In this document: piece after piece, positions 51,313 through 55,351 of the stretch | How the letters are laid out: every line of letters begins with the position of its first letter | How positions within the stretch are numbered: position 1 is the first letter of the stretch | Assembly: GCA_022709755.1 (NCBI GenBank) | Contig: JAKLIF010000001.1 | Location: 318,661 to 382,660, forward strand | Reading direction: 5' to 3' | Source of the DNA: Elusimicrobiota bacterium | Lineage (GTDB): Bacteria; Elusimicrobiota; Elusimicrobia; FEN-1173; JAKLIF01 | DNA: 64,000 bases | Notes under the pieces: model-generated | What the model was told of the DNA's origin: nothing | The model's database searches: none | The model's input: the letters and a program-made list of their open reading frames with translations, nothing else | Position numbers and translations under genes: made by a program

Positions 51313-52791
51313 CTAGGACATGACGGCAAGAATTTCCCCCAAAGAGACAAAAGCGAATCCCGTGACGCGGTCTGACATGCCGTAGGGCAGGACCAATTGT
51401 TCCCCGTGCACGAGTGCGCCGCAGGTGTAGAGAACGTTGGGCACGTACCCTTCCCGCTCGATGCCTTCCGGGCGCATCAACGGTTCGCTCAGGCGGCCGA
51501 TCACCTTGGAAGGATCCTTCCGATCCAAAAGGAACGCGCCGAGGCAATATTTCCGCATGGGGCCCACTCCATGGCTCAAAATCAGCCAGCCCTCCTCCGT
51601 TTCGATGGGACAACCGCAATTGCCCGTCTTGATGAACTCCCAAGGATAGGCGGGCGAGAGGAGAAGACTCGCTTCGTTCCAAAAATGCACGTTGTCGGAA
51701 TACATCAGAAAAATATTCTCCCCATCCTGCCGGGAAAGCATGGCGAAGCGCCCGTCGATCTTGCGCGGGAAGAGAGCCATCCCCTTATTCTGCACGCCCG
51801 GACCGTTCAATGTGGCGAACTTGAAGTGACGGAAATCCTCCGTCTGAAAGAGCTGGGGAAGGACATTGCGCCCGTCGTAGGCGGTATAAGTGGCGTAATA
51901 GGTCGTTTTTCCGTCGTCATCCCGATGTGCCGTCAAACGAACGTCCTCCAGGCCGTTGCTCTGAATGGGAGTGACGGGAAAGATGATCCTTTCGGAAAGG
52001 TCCTGATCCGGCGGGAACCGTATATCGTAGTTGGACTGAGCCAAAAGCCAAAGGCCCTTGGCGGCGTTGTTGTCGCCGATCCGTTGGCCGGGCGCCGTTT
52101 CGCGGAGGACCTCCTTCAGTTCATTCTTGAGCTCGCTGATCGTGAAAAAATCCGCCAGCCGACCCAGCACGCGATCCGTCCATTCACCGGCCAACCCCAT
52201 TTCCGCGACTTTCCGCCGGAAGAGGTCTTTATGATAGGTCGAGTTTTCAACCAGAACGGGCTCGGCCAAAAATCGGGACGCCGGATCCACGGCAATGCCG
52301 TTGTGGGCGTTGATGACGCCGCTACGGAAAGAGATTGAAGAGATGTGGCCTTCGCCCGTCGAGCGGAGACTCAAGAGGAAGCGAAGGCTCCCCTTCGGCA
52401 ACTTCGATTGATCCGGATGGGGAAGGATGGAGGGATTGAAGAGTGCCGCGGATTCAGGCGAATATTCAAACATGAAGTAAGAACCGATCAAGAGCTTTCG
52501 CGCCTCCGAGAGGTCGTGGCCCGGGGGCAAGAAATGCTCAAGATAATGGAATCTTTTCAGGAGACGCTCGGTCAGCCAACGATGGCGGGAAGAAAACTCC
52601 GCAAGCGTTTGGTCCAGAACGATCCGGACATCCTTCTCGGAAAGCGCCAAGACCCGGCGAATGATCTTCACGTGTTCTTCATCGGAAGAAAAACCCAGAG
52701 GCCGCAGGACCACCCGGGTTTGATCCGGCGAGAGCCGGACTTCCGTCCGGCGGACATTTATGTTTTTGAGCGGACCGGAATGTTGATCCAT
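51313..52791 (-). CDS. GH130-family (DUF377) glycoside phosphorylase-like protein with ~150-aa N-terminal extension
   Basis: C-terminal ~340 aa match the GH130 pattern: EDVRLTAHRDDDGKTTYYATYTAYDG, NKGMALFPRKIDGRFAM, GNCGCPIETEEGWLILSHGVG...YCLGAFLLDRKDPSKVIGR, GYVPNVLYTCGALV. Confidence 0.78.
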   Translation of the reverse strand: MDQHSGPLKNINVRRTEVRLSPDQTRVVLRPLGFSSDEEHVKIIRRVLALSEKDVRIVLDQTLAEFSSRHRWLTERLLKRFHYLEHFLPPGHDLSEARKLLIGSYFMFEYSPESAALFNPSILPHPDQSKLPKGSLRFLLSLRSTGEGHISSISFRSGVINAHNGIAVDPASRFLAEPVLVENSTYHKDLFRRKVAEMGLAGEWTDRVLGRLADFFTISELKNELKEVLRETAPGQRIGDNNAAKGLWLLAQSNYDIRFPPDQDLSERIIFPVTPIQSNGLEDVRLTAHRDDDGKTTYYATYTAYDGRNVLPQLFQTEDFRHFKFATLNGPGVQNKGMALFPRKIDGRFAMLSRQDGENIFLMYSDNVHFWNEASLLLSPAYPWEFIKTGNCGCPIETEEGWLILSHGVGPMRKYCLGAFLLDRKDPSKVIGRLSEPLMRPEGIEREGYVPNVLYTCGALVHGEQLVLPYGMSDRVTGFAFVSLGEILAVMS

Positions 52792-52792
52792 T

Positions 52793-55078
52793 TCAATGTG
52801 GGTCGGCGGAATTTTTAAAAGCGGCCTTTTCGTTGTGCACCTGCTGCATCTCCACCAACGAAATGAGGAACGCCAGGGTGGACTCGGCCCCCTGGTTTTG
52901 GTTCACGCGGTCCACGTGCAACCCATCCCGGCAACCGCCGGTATTGGCATCGTAGAGGAACAGACCTAGATCATTGCGGCCCAAAAACCAGTCGAAGGCG
53001 CGGCGCGCTTGGCCGAACCAGTAATCGTCCGAAGTGCAGCGATAGGCCTCCAAACAGGCGGACACCATGGTCTGGGCTTCGATGGGCTGCTGGTCAAAAT
53101 TGGCCCTCTCTCCGCCACGCTTAAAAAAACCATTGGAACCGACGGGCCGAAGATAGCCTCCCTCGGCGGTCTGGATTTTTGTGAGCCAGCGCAACGTTTT
53201 TAATCCTGTCTCAAGCACGTCCGCGCGGGAGGTCCAGCGCCCGCTTAAAATCAGCGCGTGGCAAAGCACGGCGTTCATATAGGTCACCGAATCTTCAAAC
53301 CAGGGCCACTCCGGCGTGGCGGTGCGGGAGTAGAGCCCCATCAGCAAATCGGTCAGTGCTTCACGGGCTTGGTTCACCTGCCGGTCTCCATTCAACCGCC
53401 GCAAATATTCATGGGTGCCGATCAAAGCCAGGGCCCAGGCCCGAGGCGAACTGAAACCCGTGACCGGAGACAGCGCCTGGGCGAAAATCTGCCCGGCCAT
53501 GGTTTGAAAACCCGGGTTCTTGGATCGGCCCACGCAGGTCCCCAGGGCCAACAGGGCGCGGCCGCAACAGTCCTCCGATATGGTCTCGTCTTTCCAGGAT
53601 CGATCGAATTTCATGAAATTGCGGAACCGGTTCAACGAAGGGTCGAAAGCATATTGAAGGAAAGCGGCGTAGACAGTGGCGACGTTTATCAGATGGGGCG
53701 AGTCTTCCCCCAGTTCTTCCAGCAGCACCGTCAACGCCAGGGCCCGGGCGTTGTCGTCGGTACAATAGCCGGTGGAAAAGTTCGGCACAGCCACAATGGC
53801 GTGCTGAAAAATGCCGGTCGAATCGGTCATGCGGTAAAGGTGATCGAGCCTCATATCCGGAAGCTCGGTGAGCTGTTTATCCAGAGTCTTCATCGTGAAA
53901 AGCTTCCGGGTCAGGCCGGCACGCTGGTTCCGCGCGTTCTCAAAAGCCTGCATGTAGGAACAGGCCACGTTCCCCCACACCATGTCCCGTCCCATTTTGT
54001 AGGCGTTCTTCCGCATGATGTTCCGACGTACGTCATCCGTCAACAACCCTATCACCGCCCGGGCAATGGCGTCCGGGTCGCCGAAGGGGACCAATACGCC
54101 TCGGTTGTCGGCCAAAAGCTCTTGAGCATACCAGTAGGGCGTGGACACCACGGCTTTACCCGCTCCGAAACAATAGGCCAGGGTTCCCGAAGTGATTTGT
54201 GTCTCGTTCAAATAGGGGGTAATGTAGATATCCGCGGCGCCGATAAATTCCTTCAATTCAGCCAGCTCTACGAAACGATTGTAAAAGATTACGTTCTTCT
54301 GAACGCCGTTTTTTTCGGCCAACAATTCCAAACCCAAACGATACGATTCCCCTTGTTCACGCAGAAGGTTCGGGTGTGTGGCGCCCAAAACGATGTAAAC
54401 AACATCGGGGTGCGTCGCCACGATCTTGGGCAGGGCATTGAGCACATTTTCAATACCCTTGTTCGGGGAGAGCAAGCCGAAGGTCAGAAGAACCTGTTTG
54501 CCCTCCGCGCCGAAAAGATCTTTATAAAAATTGGAGTCCACGAAAGAGGTTTCCGGAATGCCGTGGGGGATGATGTCGATCTTATCCGCAGGCGCCTTAT
54601 ACACATCCTGCAGGAACCCCGCACCTTTTTGCGACATCACCACCAGCCGGGTGGAGAGGTGGATCAGTTCTTTCATCACGCGCTTTTGATCGGCGTTGGG
54701 ATCCTTCAGCACGGTGTGCAACGTGGTCACGACGGGAATATCCACTTCCCGTAGCAGGGCCAGGAGGTGCCCGCCGGCCACCCCCCCGTAAATGCCGTAT
54801 TCGTGTTGGACGCAAACCACATCCACATCGTTGATGCCCAAAAAATCCGCGGCACGGCGGTAGGAAGACAGGTTCTGCTCCTCAATCTCAAAGCGCACAT
54901 CCGACGGATAGTCGTATCCACCCTCCACGTCGTTGACGGGCACGGCAAAACACTGTACTTGGGGAAACTGAGTTGCCACGGAGGTGCACAGATCCGTGGT
55001 AAAGGTGGCAATACCGCAGAGGCGAGGAAGATAGTTCCCCACAAAAGCGACCTTTCGGATTTCGGAACGGGACATCAT
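52793..55078 (-). CDS. Two-domain protein: N-terminal GT4 glycosyltransferase (~400 aa) fused to a C-terminal (alpha/alpha)6-barrel glycoside-hydrolase-like domain (~350 aa)
   Basis: GT4 part: KVAFVGNYLPRLCGIATFTTDL...VVCVQHEYGIYGG..., GATHPN..., YCFGAGKAVVSTPYWYAQELLADNRGVLVPFGD (E-x7-E region). C-terminal part, ...IFQHAIVAVPNFSTGYCTDDNARALALTVLLEE... to ...ESTLAFLISLVEM, is helical-repeat, six-hairpin-like. Confidence 0.75.
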   Translation of the reverse strand: MMSRSEIRKVAFVGNYLPRLCGIATFTTDLCTSVATQFPQVQCFAVPVNDVEGGYDYPSDVRFEIEEQNLSSYRRAADFLGINDVDVVCVQHEYGIYGGVAGGHLLALLREVDIPVVTTLHTVLKDPNADQKRVMKELIHLSTRLVVMSQKGAGFLQDVYKAPADKIDIIPHGIPETSFVDSNFYKDLFGAEGKQVLLTFGLLSPNKGIENVLNALPKIVATHPDVVYIVLGATHPNLLREQGESYRLGLELLAEKNGVQKNVIFYNRFVELAELKEFIGAADIYITPYLNETQITSGTLAYCFGAGKAVVSTPYWYAQELLADNRGVLVPFGDPDAIARAVIGLLTDDVRRNIMRKNAYKMGRDMVWGNVACSYMQAFENARNQRAGLTRKLFTMKTLDKQLTELPDMRLDHLYRMTDSTGIFQHAIVAVPNFSTGYCTDDNARALALTVLLEELGEDSPHLINVATVYAAFLQYAFDPSLNRFRNFMKFDRSWKDETISEDCCGRALLALGTCVGRSKNPGFQTMAGQIFAQALSPVTGFSSPRAWALALIGTHEYLRRLNGDRQVNQAREALTDLLMGLYSRTATPEWPWFEDSVTYMNAVLCHALILSGRWTSRADVLETGLKTLRWLTKIQTAEGGYLRPVGSNGFFKRGGERANFDQQPIEAQTMVSACLEAYRCTSDDYWFGQARRAFDWFLGRNDLGLFLYDANTGGCRDGLHVDRVNQNQGAESTLAFLISLVEMQQVHNEKAAFKNSADPH

Positions 55079-55302: not shown

Positions 55303-55351
55303 ACTAAAAACACGAGGTCTGCTCCGCTATAAAAACGGAACAAACCTCGTC
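55303..55351 (-). terminator. Putative rho-independent terminator downstream of the PLD-family gene
   Basis: Minus-strand RNA ACGAGGU-uuguuCCGuuuuuauagCGGagcag-ACCUCGU (7-bp outer stem, 4-bp inner stem), followed by GUUUUUAG. Confidence 0.4.

Follow-up and report, generated by a model that had tools for sequence, protein, structure and literature searches.

The GT4-barrel fusion gene and the long-form GH130 gene that follows it form a functional unit, which in the Elusimicrobiota genome studied here lies within a window of 64,000 nucleotides (the whole stretch of DNA that was analysed). The explanation we prefer, at a probability of roughly 0.45, is that the pair is a cytoplasmic, co-translated module that both makes and turns over a mannose-containing oligosaccharide or glycoside, intracellular and with alpha as well as beta linkages.

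Linkage and neighbourhood of the gene pair

Both open reading frames, of 761 and 492 codons, are present on the minus strand where a first-pass annotation had placed them (Table 1), and a single nucleotide separates the stop codon of the GT4-barrel gene from the ATG of the GH130 gene. In approximately 68 of 75 informative related loci (~90%), from at least 11 phyla, a barrel fusion occurs in the fetched locus together with a long GH130; the fusion gene is directly upstream and on the same strand in 58 of the 75. Two variants encode the barrel separately, and in both the GH130 gene follows it, as does the GT4 gene in one. The 1-nt spacing, the wide synteny and the persistence of the partners in split variants all support a functional unit, as the first-pass annotation had proposed. 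Chance adjacency of two unrelated carbohydrate genes is effectively refuted by this synteny, since split and reordered variants also keep the partners together. Between phyla the pair shares 50-70% identity, and more than 600 species genomes carry it; homologues of the 761-aa protein are 100% identical on the Elusimicrobiota contig and 68-89% identical in other phyla. No paper describing a GT4-barrel and GH130 pair was found in the literature searched.

Table 1. Positions of the gene pair, its protein segments and the adjacent hairpin in the window
Feature	Position	Strand	Basis or remark
Intrinsic-terminator-like hairpin, 17 pairs and T-run	55312..55350	-	Downstream of PLD gene
GT4-barrel fusion gene (761 aa), operon gene 1	52793..55078	-	ORF, Pfam GT4 matches
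GT4-type GT-B domain, residues ~1-385	53924..55078	-	Pfam, profile alignment to MshA 3c4q, homologue columns
YPO2471-like (alpha/alpha)6 barrel, residues 390-761	52796..53911	-	Predicted structure, conserved residues
Long-form GH130 gene (492 aa), operon gene 2	51313..52791	-	ORF, Pfam PF04041, PDB and Foldseek matches
GH130 N-terminal extension, residues 1-105, two strands and four helices	52477..52791	-	AF2 secondary structure
Propeller blade 1, residues 107-181, FNPS motif and R143	52249..52473	-	AF2 strands, Foldseek
Helical insert, residues 188-252, between blade 1 and catalytic ED motif	52036..52230	-	AF2 helices
Propeller blades 2-5, residues 255-492, E282-D283, K336, R354, H407, D474	51316..52029	-	HMMER alignments, homologue invariance

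Genes flanking the pair are not conserved, even in comparison with another Elusimicrobia genome. The secreted PLD-family protein previously noted beside the pair does have two PLDc_2 domains (Pfam) and a hydrophobic N-terminus. However, its gene, upstream of the GT4-barrel gene, is outside the module, because a terminator with a 17-bp stem intervenes and none of the related loci has a PLD neighbour. The GT4-GH130 transcription unit is bounded upstream by this hairpin.

The neighbourhood also bears on the possibility of catabolic salvage, in which imported beta-mannosides from fungal, algal or bacterial mannans would be converted to Man1P and then GDP-mannose, for reuse by the GT4 in unrelated glycans. 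GH130 enzymes are known mainly from catabolism, and a salvage route of this kind has been proposed for the cluster of Thermoanaerobacter sp. [quoted passage not shown] However, the transporter, secreted-glycosidase and Man1P-guanylyltransferase genes of that cluster are not conserved beside the pair in 80 loci. Instead, the two genes travel on their own, with unrelated genes around them, and a GT4 that is fused to a second enzyme domain points to a single shared substrate, making salvage unlikely. The absence of conserved GDP-mannose or Man1P metabolic genes near the pair in the related loci also counts against the intracellular glycoside module that we favour.

The long-form GH130 protein

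The first-pass annotation had recognized a GH130 domain at the C-terminus of the 492-aa protein. Pfam Glyco_hydro_130 (PF04041) matches residues 266-491 far beyond chance (E 2.3e-32; 112.6 bits against a cut-off of 26), and the motifs on which that call relied (YYATYTAYDG, NKGMALFPRKIDGRFAM and GYVPNVLYTCGALV) are all found in the translation. The AF2 model (pLDDT 88.5) is a five-bladed beta-propeller, and its Foldseek alignments span entire GH130 targets of ~300 aa (E 8e-20; TM 0.73-0.75 by target length for Teth514_1788 and 7fip). A weak fold match was also obtained to the L. major structure 2b4w, which presumably belongs to the GT108 family. In both sequence and fold, the protein is closest to Teth514_1788 and Teth514_1789 (GH130_6), Lin0857 and Uhgb_MS (GH130_4), cytoplasmic enzymes with the same propeller, ED motif, Lys of the Glu/Lys pair and phosphate-binding Arg and His. 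However, identity over the fold is only ~22-23%, and those enzymes are ~300-360 aa long and lack both the ~105-aa N-terminal extension and the ~65-aa helical insert found here.

The N-terminal region was correctly described as having no sequence match, but its length had been put at ~150 aa, whereas 265 aa are unmatched; Pfam and PDB profile searches gave nothing significant for residues 1-262. In the AF2 model, the unmatched part comprises the N-terminal strands (13-31) and helices (37-105), blade 1 and the helical insert. The extension is strongly conserved within the long-form family, and no sequence relative was detected for it elsewhere. Topologically, the insert sits where GH130_4 enzymes have their active-site lid loop, which in Uhgb_MS (residues 53-100) is found between R47 and E136 (PMC12814180), and by this analogy we infer that it may act as a lid.

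Across 48 homologues, seven residues do not vary (R143, E282, D283, K336, R354, H407 and D474). In HMMER alignments to Uhgb_MS (E136/D137), Teth514_1788 and Teth514_1789, all of these except R143 align with catalytic or phosphate-binding residues of solved beta-1,2-mannoside phosphorylases. Following the residue roles given by Li 2020 (PMC7660257), which include those of the phosphate-binding Arg and His, E282-D283 correspond to the +1 subsite Glu and the proton donor. D283, at the position of UhgbMP D104, aligns with Uhgb_MS D137 and the EDPR motif of 7fip, and the phosphate-binding pair of UhgbMP (R168/H231) is represented by R354 (LSRQ vs. FHRR/FHRP) and H407 (SHGV vs. YHGV/YHGA). R143 is likely the equivalent of UhgbMP R59, although this placement is a match by eye to LFRS, a motif of short GH130 proteins, in a part that hhalign left unaligned. 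Retention of the proton donor and the phosphate-binding residues had been set beforehand as a check on the GH130 assignment, and D283, R354 and H407 are all kept. The retained phosphate-binding residues argue indirectly that the long GH130 is of the phosphorolysis type; GH130 hydrolases are defined by a second carboxylate that serves as general base, such as E227 of BT3780.

The positions of UhgbMP Y103/R150 are occupied by E282 and K336 (NKG), compared with E136 and the Lys of NKD in Uhgb_MS. According to the rule of Li 2020 (PMC7660257), a Glu/Lys pair denotes beta-1,2-mannoside specificity, and E282 and K336 therefore predict this specificity for the long GH130; the rule was derived from short GH130 enzymes and is only predictive for the long form. 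The four best PDB sequence matches are all beta-1,2-specific enzymes. The protein is not an orthologue of the characterized beta-1,2-mannobiose phosphorylases, as it scores far below the cut-offs of the NCBIfam equivalogs NF050092 (140.6 vs. 550 bits) and NF052550 (137.3 vs. 450 bits).

The GH130 protein has a polar N-terminus, a maximum 19-residue hydropathy of 1.12 and neither a signal peptide nor a transmembrane segment, and is thus cytoplasmic. The fusion protein likewise lacks a signal peptide and transmembrane segments.

The GT4-barrel fusion protein

Residues 22-362 of the 761-aa protein match Pfam Glycos_transf_1 (E 2.7e-19; 69.8 bits, cut-off 26.4) and Glyco_transf_4 (E 8.2e-11; 42.7 bits, cut-off 28.5) far beyond chance, in agreement with the GT4 glycosyltransferase first reported. 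However, the canonical set of GRxxxxKG Arg and Lys plus EX7E is incomplete: the Lys is kept as K207, but across 40 homologues the Arg is replaced by Leu (FGLLSPNKG), and both Glu positions of EX7E are variable or absent, with a conserved QITSGTL instead. Together with QHE(Y/F)GI(F/Y)GG and TLHT, QITSGTL is one of the invariant motifs specific to this family. Judged by its motifs, the domain is an atypical, divergent GT4. The lack of the canonical Arg and both EX7E Glu casts doubt on the choice of donor and even on transferase activity, which counts against the favoured explanation. Among the closest proteins of solved structure are PimA and PimB', both GDP-Man-dependent, which speaks for it, but MshA and sucrose-phosphate synthase are matches of the same quality as PimA.

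These relatives allow for a different setting, in which the GT4 builds a glycolipid, LPS or exopolysaccharide unit that the barrel and GH130 edit. PimA, PimB' and MshA use lipid or small-molecule acceptors, the source records carry the annotation 'glycosyltransferase involved in cell wall biosynthesis', and the barrel homologue YPO2471 is described as exported. Such an envelope or secreted glycoconjugate role is nevertheless quite improbable, given that flippase, polymerase, export and lipid-carrier genes are not conserved nearby in the related loci, that neither protein carries a membrane or export signal, and that the phosphorylase requires cytoplasmic phosphate (PMC7660257).

A six-hairpin fold for the C-terminal domain had been set in advance as a test, and the model (pLDDT 95.3) confirms it: twelve helices are arranged in an inner and an outer layer, and one opening of the barrel is lined by conserved polar residues. 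These polar and acidic residues (D52, D53, R56, D114, R118, E206, N213, D273, Q274, Q275, D329 and E343 in domain numbering; add 389 for protein numbering) are located at the N-termini of alternate helices, the active-site place in six-hairpin enzymes. A significant profile match and shared motifs relate the barrel to YPO2471 of Yersinia pestis (PDB 7tem), its sole sequence relative with a structure, which was not mentioned in the literature searched. YPO2471 is described as stand-alone, unlike the GT4-fused barrel here. The GH15/GH63/GH37 likeness originally suggested holds at the level of the fold but not of sequence; the barrel belongs to none of these families and has its best fold match elsewhere, being closer to AGE epimerases, GH9 and GH76 than to GH15/GH63.

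Given this fold, the barrel could instead be an AGE-type epimerase or isomerase that interconverts glucose and mannose at the reducing end of a disaccharide then phosphorolysed by GH130, on the model of the cellobiose 2-epimerase and mannosylglucose phosphorylase pathway. We consider this very unlikely. Profile-to-sequence comparison with E. coli YihS gave a probability of 5%, no AGE Pfam model matched the barrel even at E<=10, and the conserved centre is carboxylate-rich, with one near-invariant His (domain H37) as against the AGE catalytic His pair, mapped by approximate position. Membership in the AGE superfamily was rejected on the missing sequence relationship and His pair. Furthermore, the cellobiose 2-epimerase pathway uses a beta-1,4-specific GH130 with a Y/R pair, as opposed to E/K here.

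A possible intracellular mannoside and its implications

GT4 enzymes are retaining and form alpha products, and GH130 enzymes phosphorolyse beta-mannosides to alpha-Man1P. The earlier suggestion of a cycle that makes and recycles one glycoside is therefore upheld as to the linkage of synthesis and phosphorylase genes but not as to a bond shared by GT4 and GH130. In the intracellular glycoside module that we favour, the GT4 domain would take a hexose from an activated donor and attach it in alpha linkage to an acceptor; GDP-mannose is the likeliest donor, ahead of UDP- or ADP-glucose. The long GH130 would reversibly add or remove beta-1,2-linked mannose via alpha-mannose-1-phosphate and phosphate, so that breakdown would save the bond energy as Man1P, and its two extra helical segments probably cover the active site and limit it to a short, specific substrate. 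The barrel, with its carboxylate-rich centre, may act on the alpha-linked part by cleavage or transfer, so as to trim it, supply primers or allow recycling, much as MmpH works alongside the GT4 ManT in the methylmannose polysaccharide metabolism of mycobacteria. A compatible solute is a possible product.

Known systems offer partial parallels. ManT (GT4, GDP-Man) and MmpH, an (alpha/alpha)6 endo-mannosidase, jointly act on an intracellular mannan (PMC9883506), but they are separate proteins, accompanied by methyltransferases and without a GH130, whereas here a single protein joins GT4 and barrel and has a phosphorylase as its partner; at the sequence level, the barrel showed no relationship to MmpH. 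Cyclic beta-1,2-glucan synthase (Cgs) combines GT84, GH189 (alpha/alpha)6 cyclisation and GH94 phosphorylase domains, but the families differ throughout, and all three Cgs domains act on beta-1,2-glucan, while GT4 (alpha, retaining) and GH130 (beta-mannoside) share no linkage type. The Leishmania mannogen enzymes (GT108) are propellers that synthesize a beta-1,2-mannan reserve in the cytoplasm and also degrade it by phosphorolysis, and they set a precedent for an intracellular beta-1,2-mannoside pool, although they are a distinct, eukaryotic family without a GT4 or barrel partner.

Some related loci are extended. In 31 of 80 (~40%), an additional 346-aa GT4 directly downstream of the long GH130 matches the glucosylsucrose synthase TeGSS (PDB 7fg9) at E 7e-78, and in about 20 loci a short canonical GH130 follows it. 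TeGSS is an alpha-1,2-glucosyltransferase that makes cytoplasmic, stress-induced oligosaccharides (PMC9909042), a parallel that speaks for the favoured explanation; a gene of this type is absent from the window. In most extended operons the short GH130 has an E/R pair, predicted to denote beta-1,3 specificity, as against E/K in the long GH130, so the predicted linkages do not appear uniform across the cluster, which counts against the favoured explanation.

Existing annotations of these proteins are generic ("glycoside hydrolase family 130 protein", "glycosyltransferase family 4 protein"), and no family model covers the barrel. A tentative broader proposal is that the pair, with the optional glucosylsucrose-synthase-like GT4 and short GH130, is the machinery for an as yet undescribed oligosaccharide of the cytoplasm that contains mannose, the bacterial equivalent of mannogen or sucroglucan. 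If so, hundreds of species from soil, freshwater and gut, in at least 11 phyla, would use the product to store carbon or to withstand stress. The YPO2471-like barrel would then be the first member of a new family of glycoside hydrolases or transglycosylases, and the long GH130 would represent a new specificity, with a helical cap selecting the substrate. Because the module is so conserved and widespread, the pair probably handles a common but so far overlooked carbohydrate in the cytoplasm of Acidobacteriota, Verrucomicrobiota, Planctomycetota, Elusimicrobiota and others. The question is directly testable, since the pair is carried by cultured Spirosoma spp., Fibrella rubiginis, Rhodopirellula sp. 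SWK7 and Verrucomicrobium sp. BvORR034. Identifying the carbohydrate could yield a function for the structural-genomics orphan 7tem and a new GH130 specificity for beta-mannoside synthesis, and could test whether bacteria hold mannogen-like reserves.

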